Sequence record: OP595145.1
Length of the DNA stretch: 64,000 nt
From: Escherichia phage vB_EcoM_DE16
Strand: one strand, 5' to 3'
Shown: positions 29,860 through 58,429 of the stretch, in pieces
Layout of the letters: every line of letters begins with the position of its first letter
Position numbering within the stretch: position 1 is the stretch's first letter
Made by a program: the position numbers and the translations under genes
The notes under the pieces: model-generated
Told to the model about the DNA's origin: nothing
Databases searched by the model: none
The model's input: the letters and a program-made list of their open reading frames with translations, nothing else

Positions 29860-31884
29860 ATGAATTTAACAAGACCTAATAGTGCGATAGCCGATCTGGT
29901 AGAAGCTACTTATCGAAAACGTCGCAGCTTTGAGGCAGGTTTTACATTACGTAATTCCCGTGAAGTTTTGCTGTTAGCAGCAGAAGGGAATTATTACCAA
30001 TGGAAAGGAACTTTTCCTAAAGTTGTTCCAGCAAACTCTACGCCAGCCACCACAGGTGGTATTTCTTCCCTTGCATGGCAAAGTGTTGGGACCGCTGATG
30101 ATATAGCAATTATCAATGCCAAGTTTACAGCAATGCAGCAACAGATTGATGATCTGTCGGAAACAATACCTGAAGCTGGTAAATCGGCTTATCAGATCGC
30201 ACTTGATAATGGTTTTGTTGGAACAGAAGCACAATGGCTTGCTTCTTTGAAAGGGGATACTGGTGCTCAACTTAATATTAAAGGATCATTAGCAAGCACT
30301 AGTGAACTACCATCCACAGGTAACGTTGCAGGGGATGGTTATATCGTAGGTGATGTAATCTACGCTTGGGATGGTTCTGTTTGGAAACTTATTTCTTCTC
30401 TTGGGCCAGAAGGTAAATCAGCTTACGAGGTATGGTTGGCAGATGGTAATACAGGATCTGTTTATGATTTTCTTACCTCTATAAAAGGTGATAAAGGTGA
30501 TGTTGGTCCTACAGGGCCACAGGGAGCACCTGGTGTTAACGCCAACGGTTTTGATTATCGTGGGGATTTGCCTTCTACAAGTAACTTACCACAACCTAAC
30601 TCTGAAAACGTAAGCCAAGCTTATTCTATCAATGGTAATCTTTATGTCTCTAATGGGACAGCTTGGGTCAACATGGGTAATATTGTTGGTCCTCAAGGTC
30701 CACAAGGTGAGGCAGGTAAAGACGGTCTTGATGGAACAGATGGAGATGAAGGGAAATCTGCATATCAAAGTTGGCTGGATGCTGGTAATGAAGGGACAGA
30801 AGTAGATTTTATTGCCTCACTTAAAGGTCCAAAAGGAGACAAGGGTGATCAAGGAGAGCGAGGTCCACAAGGTGAACTAGGTCCACAAGGACCAGTGGGT
30901 GCAACAGGATCAGGTTTAGAGATTATCGGGGTTCTGAACAGTGAAGCTGAACTTCCTCCTACTGGAGAAGTAGGTGATGCATATAAAATTAATAATGATT
31001 TGTATGTTTGGATTCAAGATGCTACGGAATGGATGAATGTTGGCAGTCTTGGAGGAACATCAATTACAGCTAAAGGTCATGTTCCGAACAGTGAAGCTCT
31101 CCCTGTTTATAATAACTATGGTGATGCCTATTTAACTGAAGACACTAGTAATCTTTACATCTATACCTACGATCAAGACACCAATTCCGCATCTTTTGTT
31201 GACATGGGAAGTATTAAAGGCGACAAAGGTGAAAAAGGGGATAAAGGAGATAAGGGTGATCCTGGAACAAACGGAACCAACGGTACTGATGGGACCAACG
31301 GTAAGGACGGCGCACAGTGGTTTGTAGCAACAACTAATCCAGTTGCAGGAGACGGTGTTATCAATGATTACGCTTTCAACACTACCACTGGAGCAGTGTT
31401 TAAGAAAACAGATTCTTCTACATGGACACTTATAGGAACTCTTCCTAGTATACCAGAAGCACCTCAAGACGGCTTGACGTATGGTCGTTCTGATGGGAAC
31501 TGGATCGAAATATCAGGATCAGATCCTACAGAAGCTATAACACCAACTAAAGTTACAGCAGGTTTCATGGAACTTGAAACAACTACTGCCAACTCTGGAG
31601 CATCTTGGACTCCTTCTGGAACTTCCAATATGTATGTTGTTACAGTAACTGACGCTCTGACAGTTGGAGCATGGCCTGGTGTCACTGGCTCTACAAAGCC
31701 TAAAGCGTTTTCAGCAATGATTTATTTGATTCAAGATACAACGGGACACACGGTTACACTAGATGCGTCTTATGGAGCACTGAATGATACAGAAATAGCA
31801 ACTACTGCTAACGCAGTAACAATTTTGCAATTAACGTATCCTGGTGTGGGTGATATCGTGGACATGGTTGTTGTAACACGATAA
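29860..31884 (+). CDS. tail fiber protein with collagen-like Gly-X-Y repeats and phage tail-fibre repeats
   Basis: 674 aa; G-X-Y runs (KGDKGDQGERGPQGELGPQGPVGATG; KGDKGEKGDKGDKGDPGTNGTNGTDGTNGKDG) and three GKSAY...WL..GN.G...DF..S.KG repeats. Confidence 0.65.
   Translation: MNLTRPNSAIADLVEATYRKRRSFEAGFTLRNSREVLLLAAEGNYYQWKGTFPKVVPANSTPATTGGISSLAWQSVGTADDIAIINAKFTAMQQQIDDLSETIPEAGKSAYQIALDNGFVGTEAQWLASLKGDTGAQLNIKGSLASTSELPSTGNVAGDGYIVGDVIYAWDGSVWKLISSLGPEGKSAYEVWLADGNTGSVYDFLTSIKGDKGDVGPTGPQGAPGVNANGFDYRGDLPSTSNLPQPNSENVSQAYSINGNLYVSNGTAWVNMGNIVGPQGPQGEAGKDGLDGTDGDEGKSAYQSWLDAGNEGTEVDFIASLKGPKGDKGDQGERGPQGELGPQGPVGATGSGLEIIGVLNSEAELPPTGEVGDAYKINNDLYVWIQDATEWMNVGSLGGTSITAKGHVPNSEALPVYNNYGDAYLTEDTSNLYIYTYDQDTNSASFVDMGSIKGDKGEKGDKGDKGDPGTNGTNGTDGTNGKDGAQWFVATTNPVAGDGVINDYAFNTTTGAVFKKTDSSTWTLIGTLPSIPEAPQDGLTYGRSDGNWIEISGSDPTEAITPTKVTAGFMELETTTANSGASWTPSGTSNMYVVTVTDALTVGAWPGVTGSTKPKAFSAMIYLIQDTTGHTVTLDASYGALNDTEIATTANAVTILQLTYPGVGDIVDMVVVTR
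30470..31320 (+). repeat. coding collagen-like (G-X-Y)n segments inside the tail fiber gene
   Basis: Four separate Gly-X-Y blocks in the translated sequence; boundaries approximate. Confidence 0.6.
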
Positions 31885-34599: not shown

Positions 34600-34628
34600 A
34601 AAAGGAGCCATTTGGCTCCTTTCTTTTA
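34600..34628. terminator. bidirectional terminator at convergence of plus and minus transcription units
   Basis: GGAGCC-ATTT-GGCTCC hairpin flanked by A-run on one side and T-run on the other, between the stops of the 31926 (+) and 34663 (-) genes. Confidence 0.6.
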
Positions 34629-34662: not shown

Positions 34663-35595
34663 TTAGAAGCAATGCAGGAAGTTTCGACCATATTGCAGTC
34701 CAATAGGAGCAAATGGAATATCATCGTCGAAGTCCATTGGAGGTTCTTCTTGATTACTTGGAGTTGGTTCTGGTTGTGGTTCAGGCTTCTTAACTTCTTT
34801 CTTCTCTTCTTTCTTAGGTTGTTCTGCGGAACCACGAATGGCAGCAGCAACTTTATCAGACAGAGCCAGAACTTTACGAGCAGAGTCAATCAGATCTTCT
34901 ACAGATACAGTCTTAATGGTATGGTCTTTACAAGCATTGAGAATAGCGTGACCAACAGATGCCCCAAGATCATAATCATTAATATCAACGCCACGAGATT
35001 CAGCAATTTCCGATTTCAGCGTGACAGTTGCAGATTGAACAACCCCAGCGATATCGAAAGCATCACCTTTAACACCATTACGAATCAGTTCCAGTGCACC
35101 ATTTACTGCGTGACCAGTTTCCAGACCTACAGTATCACGTTTTTTATAGGACTGCTTAGGAGCAGCATCGTTGGAACCTTTATTGCCAGAAGATTTGTTA
35201 GACTTCTGAACACCATCGGTAGACAATACTGTAATACGAGATTTTTTAGTATTGTAGTAAGTTTTACCGCCTTTATTATCAACGCGATCAATATCAATAC
35301 TTACTTCTACACCTTTTTCAATAGTGATCCAATTATCACCTTCTTTGACTTGCAGGTTTTCATAACCTTCTTTCAGTTCAATGTCACCAAGAGAAATCCA
35401 AACACCTTTCTCATCTGGTTTAGCACCTTTCTCTTTCAGAACAAGAGAAGCTCGGTGAGTTGAAACAATCGTTTTTCCTTCCCAATGAAAAGTTTTAGGT
35501 TCAGCGAATTTATCCAGTTTAACGTAGTCTACGATACCAGTTGCATAAGTTACGGTTTTGCCTTTACGATCAGTTTCAGTATTAATTACGGACAT
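34663..35595 (-). CDS. single-stranded DNA-binding protein-like, carrying an E. coli SSB-type acidic tip motif
   Basis: 310 aa; RBS GAGGAG; acidic/proline-rich tail with PPMDFDDDIPF followed by 15 more residues; N-terminal beta-rich region. Confidence 0.45.
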   Translation of the reverse strand: MSVINTETDRKGKTVTYATGIVDYVKLDKFAEPKTFHWEGKTIVSTHRASLVLKEKGAKPDEKGVWISLGDIELKEGYENLQVKEGDNWITIEKGVEVSIDIDRVDNKGGKTYYNTKKSRITVLSTDGVQKSNKSSGNKGSNDAAPKQSYKKRDTVGLETGHAVNGALELIRNGVKGDAFDIAGVVQSATVTLKSEIAESRGVDINDYDLGASVGHAILNACKDHTIKTVSVEDLIDSARKVLALSDKVAAAIRGSAEQPKKEEKKEVKKPEPQPEPTPSNQEEPPMDFDDDIPFAPIGLQYGRNFLHCF

Positions 35596-35611: not shown

Positions 35612-36004
35612 TTACATTAATTTTGCACAGAAAGAACGGAGTCTTTCCATATCATCTTGCTCTAACAGGTATTTACCTTTACCTATTCCAACTCCAATTT
35701 CACCATTAGGAAAATGAACTATTTGCACTGGGAAACCTCCGAGTTTAATTGTGGCAGCTTTGCCTTCTTCGTCTATAACGTTTCGGATTGTATCTTGCAG
35801 TGAAATGAATTCTTTGTTTGTAACGGTGGTTTCAATTATTTCAGATGTTTCAACACGAGCAGTTAGCTTCTTGTTTCCACCTTGAATAACCAAAATTTGA
35901 AAATAAAAAGAGTTGTCAAGACCTACAACATTTTTCTCAACTAGTGTCAAACTGGTATAGTTTCCATAAACAGTTTCAACAGCTATCTTAGAACGTTCAG
36001 TCAT
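35612..36004 (-). CDS. hypothetical protein
   Basis: 130 aa ORF in the minus-strand operon. Confidence 0.4.
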   Translation of the reverse strand: MTERSKIAVETVYGNYTSLTLVEKNVVGLDNSFYFQILVIQGGNKKLTARVETSEIIETTVTNKEFISLQDTIRNVIDEEGKAATIKLGGFPVQIVHFPNGEIGVGIGKGKYLLEQDDMERLRSFCAKLM

Positions 36005-36049: not shown

Positions 36050-36643
36050 TTACCAAGGAATATCATCTTCTTCCAATCTGGTATCTACTTGAGGTGGACG
36101 TGGAACCTTAACCTCTTTCACAAAACGAAGATATGGGAAACGTGTAGCAATTTTAATAACATGTTTGGCATCTTCTCTAACATCTTTGTGCAAGAAGCAG
36201 ATCCCTGTTTCCAAGGTTGTTTCAAAATCTTCAGAATAATAACAATCCTTCCCATCAAATGCAGCCTGGCAGATGGACAGATCGAACTCATTTAGAAAGG
36301 TTGTCATTACGCTTGTTTCCATAATCATAAGGTTGCAAAGCTGACCATCACGTTCAAACTCAAAAACGTGTTTAAGACCAGTAACACCTTCATAATTGTC
36401 AGAAGCCTCTTTGTTTCCTAGTTTACGAATATTGGTTCCCATTAAAGCAGATGCAATTAATCCTTGTATTTGTTCTTCAGTCCGATGTGCAGGAAGGGAT
36501 GTATAGAAATCCAGATCACGTCCAGCAATATCAAGAATACGCCAATCACGAACAGCACCGCCAGCCAAGACAGAATTAGGATCAGCGATCTTTAATACGG
36601 TAAGAATCTCTTTGGCAATATTGATTTGTTTTGATTTAGTCAT
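36050..36643 (-). CDS. minimal Pol-beta-superfamily nucleotidyltransferase (CCA-adding / poly(A) polymerase head-like)
   Basis: 197 aa; GGAVRD followed by DLD (LAGGAVRDWRILDIAGRDLDFYT); C-terminus ends EEDDIPW. Confidence 0.5.
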   Translation of the reverse strand: MTKSKQINIAKEILTVLKIADPNSVLAGGAVRDWRILDIAGRDLDFYTSLPAHRTEEQIQGLIASALMGTNIRKLGNKEASDNYEGVTGLKHVFEFERDGQLCNLMIMETSVMTTFLNEFDLSICQAAFDGKDCYYSEDFETTLETGICFLHKDVREDAKHVIKIATRFPYLRFVKEVKVPRPPQVDTRLEEDDIPW

Positions 36644-37272: not shown

Positions 37273-39870
37273 TCAATGACAGGATGCCCAGGAATTACCC
37301 ACATCATATCCGGCAGTAAGCTGAACATTAAGATTGTAAAATTCTCCAGCCTTAGTAACAGCTAAGGCAGCAAGTTCACCTGCCCGACTATAGGCTGTAA
37401 ACCATCCACCTTTGGGAGATTCATGAATGTTAGCCCAAATTTGCCCTGTCTCTTTTTCCTTATTATGCTTCCATTCTTCGACTTTAGCAAGGCATTCTTT
37501 ATCAATTTTCTTTTGTTCTTCAGGATCGTCTACTTTCTTCCAACCTAATGATTCAGGTGAAAACCATTTGAATTCTACAAGGTTACGAGAAACTTCAAGC
37601 TGGGCTTCATCGTGGTATGCAATCATTTGTTGCACGAAGTCTTTATTCTTCCAATCATCTTTAAAGAAGTCAACACTTAGTCCTTCTTCTTCGATCATGT
37701 CGTCATAAATAACCATTGCACGTTTAGCACAGATAACCCCACCACTTTGGAACAGAGAGTTAAGAATCGCGTGAGCAGAACGAGTAGGAACCTTACGACC
37801 GTCAATACCCAAAACATATTGTTTACCAGTCTTAACCCAGAAATCGTTTAAACGTTCTTTAAGACGCGCCAATGGGAATGCAGCTTCCCAGAAAGCATCG
37901 AACACCAATTGACCTGTAAACTTATCGCTACCAATTGTTTTAGCAACCTTGTCGGCTTGTGCACCATAGGTAATACCATACTTAACAGATTTAGCAGGAC
38001 TACGTTCAAATTTACGTCCAATAGTTTCAGTGATACGTTTTGCCATCATTGTGTGAACATCATTAGGTTTCTCTAACAACAGGGCGTTACAATACTCGTG
38101 TGGCTCCGGCTCGTACCGCCAACAGTAGTGTGATTCAATTTTTGCTTCCAAAGAGTCGAAGTCGTAGCCGATCTGGAAGTATTTAGGAACCTCCACACCA
38201 AACAAGTTACGCATCTCCCATCCAAACAAAGATGTGACACGAGGAATATTAGCTACAGACCTATGCTTCATACGCGAGGTTGCAGCATCACATGTAGCGG
38301 CTGGGGTAGGAATACGCCCATCCGCCCTTACTGCGGCTAAGAAACCTTTATCGTATTCTTGATCTTCTTCATCTTCTTCCCAATCAGCACCGCCACCTAA
38401 AATAGAGTTCCTACGATGTTTATACGTTAAGTATTCTACAATCTGTGTAGCATAAGGGAATTTCTCACCCAAAGCTTGCAGGTTAGGACAGATTTCTTTT
38501 TCCTGACCTTTGGTAAAGCATGGGTTAGTCAATACTTTAAGACCGCGACCTTTACCTTTTGCTATACGCTCTTGAATCTTCCTTTCCAAAGTTTCCGGTG
38601 TGCACTCCAGATGATCACAACGATCCTGACAAAAATTAGAAGATAGAGTTTGCTCAACGTAAGCTCGAATACCTTTCTGAAGTTCTTCCTCGCTCTTTTT
38701 AATCTTGGTGCCAGATTTAAGAGTCAAGTCTTTATCTTTATATTCAGACGGTACCCAACCTAATCCTACAAGCCAGTTTTTAATATGGGTAGTATCGTTC
38801 AATGTTGCAGGGATGTTAGGATCACACAAAGGCTCATCTGCTGCAACTGGCAGTTTCCACTCTTTCCCCAACATCACTAACCACCAATCTCCATCCCTCT
38901 CTTCCAAATGACCATCATGTTTCTTAGCAAAATTGATCATATGGTTAGTTGGCTCTAAGTTCTTTTTAATTTGCAACTTAGGTGGAATAAAAGCCTTAAG
39001 ATAACCTTTTGTTGCTGGTTTAGGTGGCAAAATAGGCTCAACGAGTAAACGAAGACGCTCCATTTCTGCATCCAAAAAAGCAAGGTTCTCTTCTGCTTGC
39101 TTCATGTTAAAAGCAAACCCACGGTGTTCCTGGCGTGTAATAATGTCTGCTACACGTTGTTCAAGTTCAAATGGACCTTCCCATTTATCATAATCACCCC
39201 ATTCTTCCATAAGGTAATTATATACGCTCGTATTGGCTTTGTTGTCATAGATACAGTAATAAAGCATATCAGCAGCAAAAGTCTTAAATCGATCTTCTTC
39301 TGGAATCTCTTTACGGAAATCTATTTTTACATCACCCCCTGCCTTTCGAGAAAGTGCTGCCAAACTATGTCCTGATTTGCCTTCAATCTTTCGATCTGGG
39401 TTTAACACTTTACTCAAAATCAAGGAGTCAATAAGTTTTACCTTATTTTTGCCCCACGTATTATATTTAACACTGTAATCTAAGCCATAAAACAGTTTTG
39501 TAGCCAACCAGTCATAGTTGATACCGTTGTGAGCCACAGCCATTTCAACCAGATATTCAGGCTTATCTTTAAAATAACCTTCATGATTAATAAAGTCTGG
39601 GAAATCTTTTAGTTGAAAATGTGTGTAATCTTGCGCCACATACTCTTTAAGAACATATGTGTATTTACCATCTGACTCTTCATAAGGACGCCCATCAAAG
39701 ATGTATTTAGGGCCATCGTGGAAAGCTACTATTTCTCCTGTTTCATGGTTCTCTAAGACAATACAGTGCATTTGAAATGTGTCTTTGAGACGATAAGGAC
39801 TAGCTAAATAATCGATAGTGTCATTATTCAACAATCCGTTTGCTTCAATATCCCATGTAAACTTACTCAC
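37273..39870 (-). CDS. DNA polymerase, family A, with 3'-5' exonuclease domain
   Basis: 865 aa; exonuclease motif DIEANGL; motif B-like KSVKYGITYGAQ; motif C YHDE; GTG start after AAGGAGG. Confidence 0.85.
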   Translation of the reverse strand: MSKFTWDIEANGLLNNDTIDYLASPYRLKDTFQMHCIVLENHETGEIVAFHDGPKYIFDGRPYEESDGKYTYVLKEYVAQDYTHFQLKDFPDFINHEGYFKDKPEYLVEMAVAHNGINYDWLATKLFYGLDYSVKYNTWGKNKVKLIDSLILSKVLNPDRKIEGKSGHSLAALSRKAGGDVKIDFRKEIPEEDRFKTFAADMLYYCIYDNKANTSVYNYLMEEWGDYDKWEGPFELEQRVADIITRQEHRGFAFNMKQAEENLAFLDAEMERLRLLVEPILPPKPATKGYLKAFIPPKLQIKKNLEPTNHMINFAKKHDGHLEERDGDWWLVMLGKEWKLPVAADEPLCDPNIPATLNDTTHIKNWLVGLGWVPSEYKDKDLTLKSGTKIKKSEEELQKGIRAYVEQTLSSNFCQDRCDHLECTPETLERKIQERIAKGKGRGLKVLTNPCFTKGQEKEICPNLQALGEKFPYATQIVEYLTYKHRRNSILGGGADWEEDEEDQEYDKGFLAAVRADGRIPTPAATCDAATSRMKHRSVANIPRVTSLFGWEMRNLFGVEVPKYFQIGYDFDSLEAKIESHYCWRYEPEPHEYCNALLLEKPNDVHTMMAKRITETIGRKFERSPAKSVKYGITYGAQADKVAKTIGSDKFTGQLVFDAFWEAAFPLARLKERLNDFWVKTGKQYVLGIDGRKVPTRSAHAILNSLFQSGGVICAKRAMVIYDDMIEEEGLSVDFFKDDWKNKDFVQQMIAYHDEAQLEVSRNLVEFKWFSPESLGWKKVDDPEEQKKIDKECLAKVEEWKHNKEKETGQIWANIHESPKGGWFTAYSRAGELAALAVTKAGEFYNLNVQLTAGYDVGNSWASCH

Positions 39871-40664
39871 TATTCCTCCTTTCTAATGTTCTCCAGAACC
39901 CACTGAAGTTCTTTTAAACTTAAACTTCTTACTCCCGCAGTTTTACTAGCTTCAGCTTTAAGTAACGGGTAAGCCTCAATGATACGCGTTTTAAGATCAG
40001 AAGTCAAGGCTTTTAAAAAATAGGTAGATGCTTCAGATAAAGAATCTTCTTCTGATAACACTTTACCTGCACTTGCTCCCGCTCTCCTAACGGCTATATC
40101 GTAGTCTTTACTGTTACCTAATACGAATAGTCGATTCTCTCCTAAAACAACGGGAGAACGCTTCTCGTTGCGTTTAATCCATATCTGGAATACACAAGGA
40201 ACATCCCAAGGTTCTCCATGAAGAATAAAAGATCCTTTTGGACATTCTTCTTCGTAAAGAAGATGCATATGGGGATTTAGTTTGTGTGCAAAAAAGATTT
40301 TTTGAAATGTGCGAGGCAAGATAAAACAAATACCACCTTCGTTATCCAGCATTTCAGCACAATGGTTAAAGAATTTAATGGCAAGACTAGCATTTTTTCC
40401 AAATGGAGGATTACCGACAAAAGCAGTTACACTACCAACAGACTCAACAGATTGAGCTAAAAAATCTGCCTCAATACAATCTTCAAACTTAGGGTCAATA
40501 TCAAAAGAAGTTATGTTTTTAAAACAAGAAGAGAAAGCTCCTTCTCCCGCAGATGGTTCTACGTAGTTAGCTTCCTCTCCAAAAATTTCTTTGATCTTAT
40601 CACATAAGAACCCCGCATAAGCGGGGTTAGTGTAATATTGATCAAGTGTGTTCAACTTGCTCAA
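39870..40664 (-). CDS. DNA N6-adenine methyltransferase (putative)
   Basis: 264 aa; AdoMet motif I EPSAGEGAF and catalytic motif IV NPPF; stop overlaps polymerase start (TAGTG). Confidence 0.65.
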   Translation of the reverse strand: MSKLNTLDQYYTNPAYAGFLCDKIKEIFGEEANYVEPSAGEGAFSSCFKNITSFDIDPKFEDCIEADFLAQSVESVGSVTAFVGNPPFGKNASLAIKFFNHCAEMLDNEGGICFILPRTFQKIFFAHKLNPHMHLLYEEECPKGSFILHGEPWDVPCVFQIWIKRNEKRSPVVLGENRLFVLGNSKDYDIAVRRAGASAGKVLSEEDSLSEASTYFLKALTSDLKTRIIEAYPLLKAEASKTAGVRSLSLKELQWVLENIRKEE

Positions 40665-41197: not shown

Positions 41198-42976
41198 TTA
41201 ATAGTTGCTATCCGTAGGCAAATTAGCAGGATTGTTGAAATACTGCTCTTTGTCATGCAGAGTTGCAGTTCTAATGTCATAGTAAAACTGCCCTGCTGGA
41301 CCAGTCTCTGAGAACTCACGGTTTTTTAGGATAAAGCAATGAGTCGTATTTCGTTCTACAGGGTCTTCAGCGGCTTTATCTCGTTCCAAAGCCAAGGTAA
41401 TACCAGCACCTTTAGCCAAGAAACTACTACCCATTGCATCGTCCTCTGTTAAGTGTTCATTGCCACCATTAGCCGATTTCTTAACGTGTGAGATGACAAT
41501 AATAGTTATAGCATACTCTTTCATGATGCGCTTCAACCATGTTGCTAACTCTTCCTGGGCTTGAACATCCATACCAGAAAGCAAATCAGAATAAGGGTCG
41601 ATAACAAGAATTGTTACTCCAAAATAGATGATCATCTCCAAAACTTTTTCTTTGATAGACTCCACATCTGCTCCACGATCATCACACACATAAAAACGTG
41701 GTGATCCATCTTCTCTTTCGTAAAAATCTAGGATTTTTTCTTTATTCTCTTCCAAGATTTGAAATTTCTCTTCCGGTGTTTTCCTATGTAGAGGAATGTG
41801 CAGGAAAGAGGACAACAGGTTACGAGAATATTTCTTATAGGTTGCTTCCAATGACAGAATACCGAGGGTATGTTCTGGGTGTGCAACAATAATATGTTTG
41901 GTGATCTCGTTCACCATCAAAGTTTTACCGATACTGGTCTTTGCCAGGATGACTGTAATCTCTTCCTCTACTAAACCACCACCCAGCATATTTGCAGCAA
42001 CACGCATAAAAGGAGGCAAGGTAATCATCTTGGATTCCAAACATTCTAATGCAGCTTCATACAAGACATTAGAAGCATAAACACCTGCTGGGGTGTATAG
42101 ACGAGCACTCCAAAAAGCTTTTACGAAATCCTTTGCACGACCTTCTTCCAGATACTGATTGGCATCCTTAAGATCCATCTGCATACGGTAGACTTTGTTA
42201 CGAGGCAGCACCTTAACAATATTTTCAAATGCCTCATTACCCGCTTTGTCATTATCCATGCAAACAATAATCTTCTTAAATTTTTCAAAGAAAGGATATT
42301 GTGCCTGAACTTGTTTATACATACTGGTTTCACCAGTTGTGCCACTTACTACTGCTGGAAGCTCATATTTGTTGTCCAAGTTTTCAGACAGCATTTGATA
42401 AGCTGCCAGAGCATCGTGTTCACCACCTGTAATTACCACAGTATGAGAACGATCTGCAAAACGAATTTGTCCAAAAAGATCTACATCTTTACCTACTTGA
42501 CCAATAGGTTTACTGAAATCTTTAGGATGAATACGACGCTTAAAACCAACCAATTCTTTACCGATGGTAGTCGGATATAAACAACTTTCTACTACCATCT
42601 GATCCCCTTCCTGACGGTATTCATAACGAACACCATAGAAAGATGAAACTTTTTCTTTAATGCCTCGATAACCACGTGGGTTGGTTGATGTTTCTTGAAC
42701 AATTTTACGATGAATCTGTTTATTAAATTCCGAACCCACAATCTCCTCCTCTTCTTCTAAAACTTCACCATTTTCTCGTAACCATTCTACGCTAGGAATA
42801 GTGTATTCACACGCAAAGCACTTAGCACCTTTATGCTCTCCATTAGAATCTAATCCATAAACCATCAGGTTATTACGAGAGCGATCCTTGCCATTTTTCA
42901 TGCAGCGCGGACAACCTGTATGCCCTTCCTTGCTAAGATCAACATCAAATCCATATTTAGTTATAATGTGCGACAC
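41198..42976 (-). CDS. DNA primase-helicase (zinc finger + TOPRIM + DnaB/gp4-like helicase)
   Basis: 592 aa; N-terminal CPRCMKNG...CFACEY zinc ribbon; TOPRIM acidic motifs (GGEHDA; CMDNDKAG); Walker A ILAKTSIGKT; Walker B LVIDPYSD. Confidence 0.8.
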   Translation of the reverse strand: MSHIITKYGFDVDLSKEGHTGCPRCMKNGKDRSRNNLMVYGLDSNGEHKGAKCFACEYTIPSVEWLRENGEVLEEEEEIVGSEFNKQIHRKIVQETSTNPRGYRGIKEKVSSFYGVRYEYRQEGDQMVVESCLYPTTIGKELVGFKRRIHPKDFSKPIGQVGKDVDLFGQIRFADRSHTVVITGGEHDALAAYQMLSENLDNKYELPAVVSGTTGETSMYKQVQAQYPFFEKFKKIIVCMDNDKAGNEAFENIVKVLPRNKVYRMQMDLKDANQYLEEGRAKDFVKAFWSARLYTPAGVYASNVLYEAALECLESKMITLPPFMRVAANMLGGGLVEEEITVILAKTSIGKTLMVNEITKHIIVAHPEHTLGILSLEATYKKYSRNLLSSFLHIPLHRKTPEEKFQILEENKEKILDFYEREDGSPRFYVCDDRGADVESIKEKVLEMIIYFGVTILVIDPYSDLLSGMDVQAQEELATWLKRIMKEYAITIIVISHVKKSANGGNEHLTEDDAMGSSFLAKGAGITLALERDKAAEDPVERNTTHCFILKNREFSETGPAGQFYYDIRTATLHDKEQYFNNPANLPTDSNY

Positions 42977-42988
42977 TTTGTTCTCCTG

Positions 42989-43267
42989 TTAAAATGGTTC
43001 GTTAGTCTCCATCATATATTCTGCTTCTAGTTCTTCCATGTGCTTTCTAAATTGGAAAGCAATTTCTGCTACAGTTACATTTAAATCTTTTTCAAAAACT
43101 TCTGTAGAGCCTTCGTAAAAACGAATACCGTCAATTAAAAGCCCTCCGTGGTAATCCCAATCACTTTCACGAGAAAGCGGGTTAGGCTCTTCATAATAGT
43201 AATCCACCTCCACGACTAAGGCTTTCCCGTTACGAGTGGTGTATTCAAAATCAAAAGTGTTAATCAT
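42989..43267 (-). CDS. hypothetical protein
   Basis: 92 aa ORF. Confidence 0.4.
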   Translation of the reverse strand: MINTFDFEYTTRNGKALVVEVDYYYEEPNPLSRESDWDYHGGLLIDGIRFYEGSTEVFEKDLNVTVAEIAFQFRKHMEELEAEYMMETNEPF

Positions 43268-44211
43268 TATAGCTCCTCAAATAAAAGTCTACGACGCTCA
43301 TTCAACACATCAATGTGATAATGAGTCCTGACATACTTAGCTAATGCTAATCCTTTCTCCATGCAAACATCGGGAGCACTTAATAAGTATTCCGTAATAT
43401 CTTTCCACTCGGAAGGTGTTTCAGCAAAGAATAACAGATCTTTAAACTCTTGTGTATGATAATTCTCACGAGGAGAACAAATCAAAGGTAAACCCTTAGC
43501 ACCTGCCTCAAGAATTTTAAGATTGCTTTTTGCATTATTAAACACGTTATCAATCAATGGCGCAAGACTGACTTGATGACCATCGTAAGATTCCATGTAG
43601 TTGGCATATGGTCTTACACCTTCATAAACACAAGTTGGTGCTACATTTTCTCTGATTACAGACCATTCACGACTACTTAAAACTTCAGAATCCCTACGAA
43701 AACCACATATTGTAAGATCTTTACCAAAATCGGGCAAGATAGCCAAATCTTGTTTATGTGTTTCACTTCCAGCCCAGACTAATGGAGTTTTGGAGTAGCG
43801 ATCACGGGTCAACACAAATTGACCTTCATCGTAAGGAAGTCCATTAGGGATTATGTGCACATTATCATTGTATTGTGAAAGTTCAACTTGCAAGGCAGGT
43901 GTCGTAGTTGTAACAAGGTCACTGTGCTCTAAAAACCATTTTAAATGTTCACGAATACCTGATTCAAAAATACCTTCTAACATGTGTCCTTTTGGAATAA
44001 CTAAAGAGTCATCCAAATCCATAACCATTTTAAAGCCTAGGTTTTTAAGGGCTAAAAAGCCCTCTTTACCTTTTGTTGGCACTCCGTTAAAAACGAAAAC
44101 GTTGTGTTTAGGTTGTGAAGAGAACTGCCTTGAGTAAGGCAGCACTACCCTATGGAAATCGCAGACACTATAATTGATTCCGTTACGATTGTCAAGAATT
44201 ATTTGTCCCAT
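43267..44211 (-). CDS. glycosyltransferase-like protein (GT-B fold type), paralogue 1
   Basis: 314 aa; paralogous to the 44219 gene; C-terminal NAKSNLKILEAGAKGLPLICS resembles the GT-B donor-binding region. Confidence 0.4.
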   Translation of the reverse strand: MGQIILDNRNGINYSVCDFHRVVLPYSRQFSSQPKHNVFVFNGVPTKGKEGFLALKNLGFKMVMDLDDSLVIPKGHMLEGIFESGIREHLKWFLEHSDLVTTTTPALQVELSQYNDNVHIIPNGLPYDEGQFVLTRDRYSKTPLVWAGSETHKQDLAILPDFGKDLTICGFRRDSEVLSSREWSVIRENVAPTCVYEGVRPYANYMESYDGHQVSLAPLIDNVFNNAKSNLKILEAGAKGLPLICSPRENYHTQEFKDLLFFAETPSEWKDITEYLLSAPDVCMEKGLALAKYVRTHYHIDVLNERRRLLFEEL

Positions 44212-44218
44212 ACTTCAC

Positions 44219-45166
44219 CTACAAACTTTCAATAACCTGGCGTCGCAATTCGTTTGCATCTGCCAGATTATAATGTGTTCGAACATGTTCAGCCAAGAAC
44301 AAGCCACGATCTTCCCGATAGTTTGGATTGCGAAGAAGCTTAACAATTTCGTAATGCCATTCTGCTTTATTCTCTGCGTAAGCAACAGCACGAGCATCTA
44401 CAGGGTTAAAATAAGGTAACACCTTAGAACAAACAATCGGAATACCTTTTGCCCCAGCTTCCAGGATTTTGAGATTACTTTTGCAATTATTAAAATCATT
44501 ATCTACCAAAGGAGCTATAGCAATAGCATGACTTTCGTAAACACTCATGTAATTATCTAAATCTTTTACAGCAGCTTTATATTTAGCGTTTGGTAAATTT
44601 CTGCGAATCTTAATCCACTCTTGTCCCGTGATGCTCTGTGATGCTTCATATCCCGCAATAGTAAGAAGTTCATCATCGAAAGTATTAGAGACTAGTCGTA
44701 AGTCGGGTTCGTGACTAGCACCGCCAGCCCATACAACAGGGGTACCGGATGAACGATCATTTGACAAAGTGAATTGTCCACTATCAAAAGGAAGTGCATT
44801 TCGGATCACAACAACATTCCTATTTAAGTGACGGATCTTATATGCCAAGTATTCCGTAGTCACAATAACCACATCAGCAAGCTTAACCATAGCCACAATA
44901 GCATGAGTGTTTGACTCGTATAAACTTGCCAAATAATGCTCTGGATTAAGTTGGTAAAAATCATCTAAGTCTACAACAATCTTAACACCTTGACGTTTCA
45001 AAGATAAAACGTATTCTGCACCTTTAGAGTGGATACGGTTAAACACAACAACATCTTTCTTAGGTTGAATATTACTGTTGTTAAATGGTATAACAATACG
45101 ATGATAGTCACAACCGCTGTGAGGTTTTGCATCAATTTTTAGTTTAGACCATTTTTTATTTGACAT
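44219..45166 (-). CDS. glycosyltransferase-like protein (GT-B fold type), paralogue 2
   Basis: 315 aa; shares HRxVxP N-terminal and CKSNLKILEAGAKGIPIVCS C-terminal motifs with the 43267 gene. Confidence 0.4.
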   Translation of the reverse strand: MSNKKWSKLKIDAKPHSGCDYHRIVIPFNNSNIQPKKDVVVFNRIHSKGAEYVLSLKRQGVKIVVDLDDFYQLNPEHYLASLYESNTHAIVAMVKLADVVIVTTEYLAYKIRHLNRNVVVIRNALPFDSGQFTLSNDRSSGTPVVWAGGASHEPDLRLVSNTFDDELLTIAGYEASQSITGQEWIKIRRNLPNAKYKAAVKDLDNYMSVYESHAIAIAPLVDNDFNNCKSNLKILEAGAKGIPIVCSKVLPYFNPVDARAVAYAENKAEWHYEIVKLLRNPNYREDRGLFLAEHVRTHYNLADANELRRQVIESL

Positions 45167-45839
45167 GTGCTAGTGCCTCCTCATAGGAAATTCGGATTTT
45201 CCCATTTTTAATATCCTCTAAAGATGCTTTATATTCTTCCCAGTTAATCCCAATAGCAGCTTCTTTCTCTTCTTTTGTCAGGTTAGCAAAAGGCATAGGA
45301 TTGTTTCCAAAAACATCGTCTGGGTGGATATAAGCCATGATACGAAGTGGACAAGGTGTTGCCTGAATACCATGATTCAAACCAGCAGCTTGCAAACGGT
45401 GTCCCCATTCAGCATCTTCAAAACCATAACCGTGAGTGTAAGGACGGAAATAACCCATCTTCTCAACAACGGCACGAGAATACATTGCAAATTGACACAT
45501 TGCAAGTTCCCAGAGAATAACTTCTCCTTTGCTTCCAACAACTTTATCTTTGAAATACTCCGGCATACCAAAGAAATCCCATCCTCCAGAAACAGCCTGA
45601 TCTACAAAGTATGTTTCCCATCCTTCCATGACTGGGTAGCAATCATCGTCAAAAATAAACCAATAATCATAACCTTCTTCATAAAACTGGTGCATAAGTT
45701 CATTCCTGGCATAAGCTACACCTTTACGATCTGGATCGTTGAATACTCGAAAATCTGCACGTGGATCTGTTACAAGGTAGTCTTTAAGTGGACGGACACC
45801 TACAGTGATAACACCCACTCCGATTTTAATATTTTCCAT
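45156..45839 (-). CDS. glycosyltransferase-like protein (GT-A fold, DxD type)
   Basis: 227 aa; N-terminal beta-strand IGVGVITVG and FIFDDDC DxD-like motif. Confidence 0.4.
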   Translation of the reverse strand: MENIKIGVGVITVGVRPLKDYLVTDPRADFRVFNDPDRKGVAYARNELMHQFYEEGYDYWFIFDDDCYPVMEGWETYFVDQAVSGGWDFFGMPEYFKDKVVGSKGEVILWELAMCQFAMYSRAVVEKMGYFRPYTHGYGFEDAEWGHRLQAAGLNHGIQATPCPLRIMAYIHPDDVFGNNPMPFANLTKEEKEAAIGINWEEYKASLEDIKNGKIRISYEEALAHVK

Positions 45840-45847
45840 TATCTCTC

Positions 45848-46411
45848 CTAAATAGTTTTACTGTGATCGTGACAGTGTAATAAATGATGTATAGACCGTT
45901 GAGGATTTGTTTGACCTAATCTGTAAATGTGGAACAGATACATTCCCCGCATCAATCCTAACCTTTTTCCTTTTTCGTGTAAAGTGCGAGAGAAAATTAA
46001 GTCAAATTGAATAGATTTTTCTTCGAAAGGAATTTCATTCCATAGTGATTTCCTAAAAAGCAAAAAGAAACCTGCCAGAGGTGTTCCGAAAGGAACTTCT
46101 TCAACACTCACTTTATGATATTCTCTTGCAATCTTAGCATATTCTATATGGTTTAGAATATCTGGATCATCGTTAATTTGGTTAGAGAAAAGCTGATAAC
46201 CACTGCCTAACCTGTTACAAGTTGCACCTATTACATCAAAAGGCGGGTTTGACATAACAAGCTCTTCAAGCATAGATGGTTGATCAGGTAGGAGGAACAT
46301 TGTATCGGTATCTCTTAAACACACCCAACTATCATCTGGAAGAACGGCAATGGCTTCATTGATAGCCTTGCCGATATTTCCTGTCAGATAGGGAGTAATA
46401 TAATAAATCAT
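45848..46411 (-). CDS. hypothetical protein, possible small GT-A-like transferase
   Basis: 187 aa; RDTDTMF DxD-like motif; weak. Confidence 0.3.
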   Translation of the reverse strand: MIYYITPYLTGNIGKAINEAIAVLPDDSWVCLRDTDTMFLLPDQPSMLEELVMSNPPFDVIGATCNRLGSGYQLFSNQINDDPDILNHIEYAKIAREYHKVSVEEVPFGTPLAGFFLLFRKSLWNEIPFEEKSIQFDLIFSRTLHEKGKRLGLMRGMYLFHIYRLGQTNPQRSIHHLLHCHDHSKTI

Positions 46412-58237: not shown

Positions 58238-58429
58238 TTAAAATGGAAGTCTTTGAAGTTCATCTCCTCCGATATCAAGTAATTTAGCAACATCTCGATC
58301 AGAAAGCAACTCTTTTCTTTGTAAAATATCCACAAGGGTTGCAAGAATGTCCTTAACGTCCCGATCACTGTTCTTCAAAAGTTCTCCTGCCGTCCCTACT
58401 TTATCTCCTACAGCAAAATATGTAACCAT
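58238..58429 (-). CDS. hypothetical small protein
   Basis: Start re-assigned to ATG (MVTYF) after TAGGAGG; 63 aa. Confidence 0.35.
   Translation of the reverse strand: MVTYFAVGDKVGTAGELLKNSDRDVKDILATLVDILQRKELLSDRDVAKLLDIGGDELQRLPF

Follow-up and report, generated by a model that had tools for sequence, protein, structure and literature searches.

A head-domain-only nucleotidyltransferase in the replication operon of Escherichia phage vB_EcoM_DE16 and its kinship with the anti-Gabija protein Gad2

Introduction

What does a nucleotidyltransferase do in a phage when it consists of little more than a catalytic domain and its gene lies among those for DNA replication? The question is raised by a gene of Escherichia phage vB_EcoM_DE16, a phAPEC8-like E. 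coli myovirus of the genus Phapecoctavirus (Stephanstirmvirinae). The DNA analyzed, here called the window, is a stretch of 64,000 nucleotides (nt) from sequence record OP595145.1. The gene, here called the NTase gene, encodes a protein of 197 amino acids (aa) and stands in an operon with genes for a primase-helicase, a polymerase, and a protein resembling SSB, the protein that binds single-stranded DNA.

Head-domain-only nucleotidyltransferases make up hundreds of phage sequence clusters, in Stephanstirmvirinae, Autographiviridae, Zobellviridae, and ICP1, and are routinely labelled "tRNA nucleotidyltransferase." Their occurrence in phages was noted earlier (PMC7291057; PMC8472413), and the NTase gene is itself a catalogued gene, an additional member of a phage nucleotidyltransferase kind already on record. 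The 8-kb region surrounding it shares 98-99% identity with anhysbys, Mt1B1_P17, and further phages, and homologues of the NTase at 95-99% identity are found in 61 phage records. GenBank entries for close homologues already carry the names "nucleotidyltransferase" and "putative tRNA nucleotidyl transferase / poly(A) polymerase," so the annotation is not new. The protein also matches two PHROG families labelled nucleotidyltransferase, PHROG 10174 (E 1.7e-62, residues 1-128) and PHROG 1614 (E 2.4e-11, residues 4-184). What is new here is that the kinship with the anti-Gabija phage protein Gad2 and the linkage to replisome genes are quantified, that a C-terminal tail resembling the SSB tip is described, and that the database name, that of a tRNA or poly(A) enzyme, is recognized as probably misleading for the family.

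Results

A predicted stand-alone enzyme with conserved catalytic residues

The NTase protein starts with MTKSKQINIAKEILTVLKIADPNSVLAGGAVRDWRILDIAGRDLDFY, and the stretch that bears the GGAVRD motif is VLAGGAVRDWRILDIAGRDLDFY. The open reading frame (ORF) list and the DNA agree with an earlier note on this window, which had read there a 197-aa ORF with a GGAVRD...DxD signature, and the signature exceeds chance. In a 140-member alignment of the family, which underlies the conservation counts given here, G28, G29, D43, and D45 are invariant (140/140), and A27, A30, R32, W34, Y84, and K164 are more than 90% conserved. The NTase matches the pattern of the Pol-beta superfamily, hG[GS] and then, one strand further on, [DE]h[DE]h within an alpha-beta-alpha-beta-beta-beta core, with G28-G29 and D43-L-D45, and its two-aspartate metal site appears intact. 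One candidate for a third, acidic metal ligand is E95, on strand 90-98, where 96 members have E or D and 18 have N; another is D121, with D in 44.

Two motifs lie beyond the metal site (Table 1). The FDxS[IV]C motif is well represented in the family, with F120 kept in 122/140, S123 in 97/140, and C125 in 104/140. Read by eye against E. coli Cca, the counterpart of class II motif B (RRD-LTINA) would be NEF-DLSICQA, and FDxS[IV]C seems to resemble the DLTINA core of that motif minus both arginines. In the C-terminal helix motif, 138 of the 140 members have K or R at position 164, F169 and P170 are likewise conserved, and the motif may help to bind triphosphate.

An exhaustive homologue search over 1.84 billion cluster representatives, with a cut-off of E<=1e-3, places at least 268 clusters (at 50% identity) in the family, nearly all of them 175-230 aa long. 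For this reason, the NTase family is taken as a distinct one and not as a truncated CCA-adding enzyme. BFVD, too, contains many phage proteins (165-230 aa) of the NTase fold. A word-indexed homologue search with alignment of the close relatives gave no further members, and the longer members of the family showed no informative additional Pfam domains.

Single-sequence searches say little about the fold. The Pfam PolyA_pol head domain (PF01743) matches the NTase with E 0.068 and 14 bits, below the cut-off of 23, and at E<=0.01 it is found on 24/140 family members only; TIGR02692 matches with E 0.039; and a search against the sequences in the PDB gave no significant match. The family profile, when compared with the sequences of solved structures, puts class II CCA-adding enzymes and poly(A) polymerases on top (6ibp, E 4.4e-5), the match spanning about 40 residues that comprise the first helix and motif A only. 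AlphaFold, given the 140-sequence alignment, returned a model with a predicted local distance difference test (pLDDT) of 93 and a predicted template modelling score (pTM) of 0.85; a model from a 10-sequence alignment (pLDDT 55) was discarded. In Foldseek searches of the PDB with the accepted model, the top matches are PAP I (the poly(A) polymerase I of E. coli; 3aql), the A- and CC-adding enzymes of Aquifex, and the CCA-adding enzyme of Thermotoga, with E from 2e-5 to 8e-4 and query template modelling scores of 0.50-0.56. About 150-160 residues are aligned in these matches to targets of 340-520 aa, and Pol-beta-fold enzymes occur throughout the hit lists.

The modelled fold is that of the head domain plus a neck stub of class II CCA-adding enzymes and poly(A) polymerases, and the NTase is thus predicted to be a stand-alone Pol-beta-superfamily nucleotidyltransferase with its catalytic residues kept. 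The earlier note had assigned the protein to the class II head-domain type, and the family profile, the AlphaFold model, the Foldseek matches, and the invariant residues bear this out. It had proposed profile and structure searches as a check, and these place the protein inside the Pol-beta fold. Its statement that the body and tail domains are absent also holds, the 197 aa standing against 390-450 aa in class II enzymes.

The likeness to class II enzymes does not extend far along the chain. The family profile aligns to E. coli Cca over 25 columns, which is motif A alone, with 35% probability, and motifs B to E were not recovered in that alignment. In class II enzymes, motif B (RRD) selects ribonucleotides and motif D (EDxxR) the bases C and A. 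No EDxxR is conserved or aligned in the 140-member family alignment or against E. coli Cca. The body and tail domains of class II enzymes hold the tRNA. With a match confined to motif A, a Pfam score short of the threshold, and neither body nor tail, the NTase does not appear to be a CCA-adding enzyme. Net charge was considered as an argument against nucleic-acid binding (the core has an isoelectric point of 5.4) and was dropped, since the head region of E. coli Cca, residues 1-190, is equally acidic (5.4).

Kinship with the catalytic domain of Gad2

Among relatives with a demonstrated phenotype, profile comparison puts the N-terminal catalytic domain of anti-Gabija Gad2 nearest to the NTase. 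Deletion of gad2 renders phage SPbetaL7 sensitive to Gabija, and a Gad2 homologue blocks Gabija (bioRxiv 10.1101/2023.05.01.538930). The same work found SPbetaL7 Gad2 to be toxic in E. coli (bioRxiv 10.1101/2023.05.01.538930). Precomputed Pfam assignments put PF26128 on the NTase-family members P0013, P0018, and P0019 (weak or faint matches) and on P0009 (grade not stated). PF26128 is the Gad2 family; it is present on 119 of the 120 listed Gad2 homologues, and the exception is a 226-aa fragment. A local Pfam search of the NTase family did not reproduce the precomputed matches.

The sequence of SPbetaL7 Gad2 was taken from the supplement of bioRxiv 10.1101/2023.05.01.538930, and the homology was then tested directly. 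With hhalign, the family profile matches SPbetaL7 Gad2 with 95.4% probability (E 1.6e-8) and a 35-sequence Gad2 profile with 97.3% probability (E 2.3e-11) over 123 columns, in which NTase residues 11-154 are aligned to Gad2 residues 16-141. Gad2 homologues are 386-474 aa long and have invariant positions as far as residue 389, whereas the alignment to the NTase ends at 141. Since just the catalytic domain is covered, the NTase family is a sister of Gad2 and not Gad2 itself. A 416-aa outlier of the NTase family (P0140) was considered as a link to Gad2 and rejected, as it has no phage match. The PADLOC defense models gave no match to the NTase.

A habitual neighbor of replisome genes

Genes of the NTase family habitually lie beside T7-type replisome genes, that is, those for primase-helicase, family A polymerase, 5'-3' exonuclease, and SSB. 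This was surveyed at 80 IMG/VR loci, which were reduced to 54 non-redundant ones; the neighboring ORFs were clustered and the clusters named with Pfam. A polymerase or primase-helicase gene lies within 6 kb of the NTase gene at 36 of the 54 loci, and polA and a primase-helicase are both present at 21. The order polA, NTase, 130-aa gene, and SSB-like gene is repeated in Justusliebigvirus (37% identity) and in metagenomic contigs (33-34% identity). Other surroundings are found as well. In a Zobellviridae Vibrio phage, the homologue follows polA and a 5'-3' exonuclease gene; on the contig of P0020, it stands between a 5'-3' exonuclease and RusA, with NrdD, MazG, deoxynucleoside monophosphate (dNMP) kinase, and NUDIX genes nearby; and in ICP1, it lies near a DNA ligase gene. 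The various gene orders among the IMG/VR loci show that the link between the NTase and the replisome exceeds inherited synteny.

The homologue in Vibrio phage ICP1_2001_A (L003 3956-4532) is annotated as two overlapping ORFs of 137 aa and 60 aa. The first stops within the conserved S-[IV]-C region, which makes the homologue a truncated variant or else a gene with a frameshift.

A C-terminal tail that resembles the SSB tip

The NTase ends in a flexible, acidic tail (...RLEEDDIPW), over the last 20 residues of which the pLDDT falls to 63-70. Its final five residues, DDIPW, show little or no variation in homologues of 58-97% identity. Within the window, the pattern [DE][DE].?IP[FWY] is found in the NTase and the SSB-like protein only, and the SSB-like neighbors in other phages end in DDDIPF, GEDIPW, GDDVPW, or GEDMPW. 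Across the family, a C-terminal [ILVMF]P[FWY] is seen in 7/147 representatives, compared to 0.23 expected (30-fold; binomial P 5e-9), and the members with this ending sit on scattered branches of a neighbor-joining tree. A rare ending in scattered branches indicates a recurrent accessory feature and not part of the core. Acidic tails with an aromatic end are known from T7 gp2.5 and gp4, where they dock on the phage polymerase.

The SSB-like protein encoded in the same operon carries PPMDFDDDIPF and then 15 more residues (APIGLQYGRNFLHCF; 34663-34707), so that the Phe of its DDDIPF is not C-terminal. This extension should bury the free carboxylate that is read by SSB-tip pockets. In anhysbys, the SSB-like gene has its stop directly after IPF. 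The extended allele is present in 11 of 42 matching phage records as well as in Justusliebigvirus alia, and some records show a neighboring endonuclease gene. The protein matches SSB profiles through its acidic tail (residues 252-295) only, its body being PHROG 4477, and no Pfam SSB or OB-fold domain was detected in it. Just one further ORF of the window has an acidic stretch ahead of P-aromatic at its C-terminus, a 63-aa ORF on the minus strand at 58238-58429 that ends in ...GGDELQRLPF; this may be chance.

The operon and its surroundings

The NTase gene shares the minus strand with the genes for the primase-helicase, methyltransferase, polymerase, and SSB-like protein, and the earlier claim that it lies in a replication operon was thus correct. 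The order is primase-helicase, a 143-aa gene, methyltransferase, family A polymerase, three small genes, NTase, the 130-aa gene, and the SSB-like gene. The operon is tightly packed, and the NTase gene overlaps the gene upstream of it by 8 nt. Its single strong terminator-like hairpin lies 3' of the SSB-like gene. A promoter scan returned 20 sites compared to 23.4 expected, which is not above chance and gives no evidence of an internal promoter.

Table 1. Coordinates of the NTase gene, its motifs, and neighboring features in the window
Feature	Position	Strand	Remarks
T7 gp4-type primase-helicase	41198..42976	minus	PHROG 239, E 2.4e-164
Methyltransferase	39870..40664	minus	Operon member
Family A DNA polymerase	37273..39870	minus	PHROG 17 and 16667; named DNA polymerase I in relatives
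NTase coding sequence, 197 aa, stand-alone	36050..36643	minus	ATG start; stop codon 36050-36052; ORF list and DNA, PHROG 10174, AlphaFold
Motif A, GGAVRD, residues 28-33	36545..36562	minus	Aligns to GGAVRD of CCA-adding enzymes
Catalytic DxD (putative), D43-L44-D45	36509..36517	minus	Aligns to DxD of CCA-adding enzymes and Gad2
FDxS[IV]C motif, F120-D-L-S-I-C-Q126	36266..36286	minus	Family conservation; hhalign to Gad2 residues 105-110 (FDFTVC)
Family-specific C-terminal helix motif, H161-x-x-K164-x-x-x-R168-F-P170	36131..36163	minus	Alignment; AlphaFold helix 160-168
Acidic C-terminal tail, residues 177-197, ends ...RLEEDDIPW-stop	36053..36115	minus	Low AlphaFold confidence
130-aa neighbor	35612..36004	minus	PHROG 16560; no Pfam match
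SSB-like gene	34663..35595	minus	PHROG 4477; named single-stranded DNA-binding protein in Mt1B1_P17
Bidirectional terminator-like hairpin	34600..34623	both strands	10-pair stem, T-run on both strands; closes operon

In Phapecoctavirus, Justusliebigvirus, and metagenomic contigs related to them, the gene for the conserved 130-aa protein (PHROG 16560) always separates the NTase gene from the SSB-like gene. This three-gene arrangement is seen in phage alia, in the metagenomic contigs L005 and L006, and in 6 of the 54 IMG/VR groups, and the 130-aa protein is a candidate partner of the NTase.

Several other features of the region deserve a record. The family A polymerase has 865 aa here, compared to 1110 aa in anhysbys (L001 3565-6897) and 1099 aa in contig L006; the longer forms imply an in-frame insertion of about 735 nt in those two, which could be an intein or an extra domain. 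Four successive ORFs on the minus strand at 43267-46411, directly upstream of the primase-helicase, correspond to four annotated glycosyltransferases in anhysbys. On the plus strand, 29860-31884 encodes a 674-aa tail-fiber-like protein with collagen-like G-x-x repeats, e.g., GDKGDVGPTGPQGAPG and GPQGPQGEAGKDGLDGTDG. Finally, anhysbys has genes for an RNA ligase, a phosphoesterase, a second RNA-ligase-like protein, and a small ATPase near a block of 10 tRNA genes (L012 2654-5011).

Discussion

A possible role at nucleic-acid ends

The reading preferred here is that the NTase would use D43 and D45 with Mg2+ for template-free transfer of a nucleotide, from a nucleoside triphosphate (NTP) or its deoxy form (dNTP), to a 3'-OH. 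Its substrates would be nucleic-acid ends that arise in phage DNA replication or recombination, either DNA 3' ends or RNA primers, and not tRNA. By analogy, the DDIPW tail might dock the enzyme on proteins that read SSB tips, such as the phage polymerase, as the tails of T7 gp2.5 and gp4 do, or host SSB-interacting proteins. The pay-off would be the processing of replication intermediates or the hiding of DNA ends from end-sensing host nucleases, and a masking of DNA ends would fit the kinship with Gad2. Taken as a whole, this reading strikes us as quite possible, if a little short of an even chance.

Of course, several points weigh against it. The putative third metal ligand, E95, is acidic in just 96/140 members of the family. 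The tail cannot be indispensable for what the core does, as about 90% of the family members end in nothing like an SSB tip. About one third of the viral loci have no replisome gene within 6 kb, and many early and middle phage genes adjoin replication genes, which means that co-location is no proof of a role at the fork. The substrate may be a nucleic acid, a small molecule, or a protein; and RNA stays a plausible substrate, given that the enzymes with the closest solved folds, those of class II, all work on RNA 3' ends. As of February 2026, the mechanism of Gad2 was still given as unknown (PMC12904381), so the kinship supplies a phenotype and not a chemistry.

That last point about RNA leads to the kind of explanation the earlier note had offered, an enzyme that repairs or alters the 3' ends of tRNA or other RNA, e.g., after attack by defense nucleases. 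It would be a minimal enzyme that adds CCA or a tail, and it might also mature the tRNAs of the phage. This explanation would account for the nearest solved folds, each of which belongs to an RNA 3'-end enzyme (PAP I or a CCA-, CC-, or A-adding enzyme), and for a motif A of class II type, GGAVRD...DxD. It agrees with the name chosen by GenBank curators and with a genus that has 10 tRNA genes and RNA-ligase-like genes. However, only motif A aligns to Cca, with a Pfam score under threshold; the body and tail that would hold the tRNA are absent; motif B has no conserved RRD; and EDxxR is not aligned. All 10 of the anhysbys tRNA genes already encode CCA, and they lie with the RNA ligase and phosphoesterase cluster about 100 kb from the NTase gene. 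The family tracks DNA replication genes and not genes for tRNA or RNA repair, and no tRNA genes were found in the 64-kb window. We regard this explanation as unlikely; relatives and neighbors point to DNA replication or counter-defense over tRNA repair. In sum, the earlier note was right about a stand-alone, class II head-type Pol-beta nucleotidyltransferase with catalytic residues, while its idea of a role in tRNA or RNA 3'-end repair is left without support by the motif A-only match to Cca, the CCA-encoding tRNAs, the distant RNA-repair cluster, the replication context, and the kinship with Gad2. Its alternative suggestion, a substrate of some other kind, may still apply.

Gad2 itself suggests another explanation, a dedicated counter-defense enzyme that transfers a nucleotide to a small molecule, a protein, or DNA and so neutralizes Gabija or another DNA-targeting defense, its position in the operon being incidental. 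The significant homology to the catalytic domain of a protein whose loss sensitizes SPbetaL7 to Gabija favors this, and other small phage nucleotidyltransferases do counter defense, by means of competitor cyclic dinucleotides (bioRxiv 10.1101/2022.06.09.495361). A related small enzyme, Gp22 of Klebsiella phage fHe-Kpn01, is toxic in E. coli (PMC7291057), like the Gad2 of SPbetaL7, but it comes from a different subfamily. The NTase also lacks about 250 C-terminal residues of Gad2 and the GS...SDxD motif of the phage enzymes that make cyclic dinucleotides, no defense-system model matches it, and its place in a conserved replication operon is fixed across two genera and beyond, which is not what a variable anti-defense locus would look like. 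On balance, such a dedicated enzyme seems rather unlikely. A replisome-tethered form of counter-defense is also conceivable, in which the tail brings a Gad2-type nucleotidyltransferase to hubs of single-stranded DNA and SSB or to the phage polymerase, where it would cap or extend DNA 3' ends or nucleotidylylate an SSB-interacting host protein, and so blind nucleases of the Gabija or RecBCD type. This is improbable; if true, it would also disclose the chemistry of Gad2. Host take-over by tailing of host RNAs in the manner of a poly(A) polymerase, which would speed their decay, shut off the host, and feed nucleotides to phage DNA synthesis, could draw on E. coli PAP I as the top structural match, on the nucleotide and DNA metabolism genes beside the NTase gene in several phages (NrdD, MazG, dNMP kinase, and NUDIX at P0020), and on the toxicity of the analogous Gp22 when overexpressed. 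This explanation argues by analogy, from a toxic protein of another subfamily; the RNA-binding module is absent from the NTase, and neither the SSB-tip-like tail nor the Gad2 kinship is explained, which makes it very unlikely. The tail could also act as a decoy that competes with host SSB for SSB-interacting proteins, with the NTase fold as a scaffold, since it looks like DDDIPF and this lineage has kept it. However, most family members have no such tail, and the invariance of the catalytic residues in 140 diverse members favors an active enzyme over a decoy, which we hold to be scarcely believable.

The preferred reading, transfer to 3' ends in replication or recombination, concerns a family for which sister status to Gad2, linkage to T7-type replication genes, and a docking-like tail acquired in some lineages make the question of function open to experiment. 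For biochemical work, a 197-aa enzyme from an E. coli phage is far easier to handle than Gad2, which is toxic and has 400 aa.

Comparison with known systems

Stand-alone head domains are known from other sources. The S. pneumoniae protein NP_344798.1 (PDB 2la3, 191 aa) is one, and it is of a different sequence subfamily from the NTase. Klebsiella phage fHe-Kpn01 Gp22 (182 aa) is another, and motif A alone aligns it to the NTase family (29 columns, 85%). Its toxicity in E. coli is on record (PMC7291057), and its gene directly follows polA, even though the subfamily is separate; Gp22 was considered as a toxic member of the NTase family and rejected on account of that different subfamily. The MNT-like nucleotidyltransferases are small phage enzymes of the Pol-beta fold with a role in counter-defense (bioRxiv 10.1101/2022.06.09.495361). 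Those that make cyclic dinucleotides have the motif GS-x-AY[GAN]T-x4-SDxD (bioRxiv 10.1101/2022.06.09.495361), whereas the NTase reads AGGAVRDW...RDLD, and this excludes it as an MNT-like maker of cyclic dinucleotides.

The class II CCA-adding enzymes and poly(A) polymerases (PF01743; 3aql, 1miv, 3h37, 4wby, 6ibp) have motif A, GGxVRD...DxD, in common with the NTase. They differ in having the body and tail, and their context is RNA metabolism, compared to DNA replication for the NTase. The C-terminal tip of SSB (E. coli ...MDFDDDIPF) consists of an acidic run after a flexible linker and a final I-P-aromatic, as does the NTase tail; the tip ends in F and is found on SSB, whereas the tail ends in W and is found on an enzyme.

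Gad2, like the NTase, is encoded by phages. It is about 400 aa long, of which some 250 C-terminal residues have no counterpart in the NTase, and it has no SSB-tip-like tail. Its gene lies in the anti-Gabija locus of SPbeta and not in a replication operon, and it reads AGGAITSLF where the NTase family has the CCA-type AGGA[PV]RDW. What the two have in common are AGGA, DxDxY[FT], a Q or N on the next strand, F-D-x-[ST]-[IV]-C, and one F.

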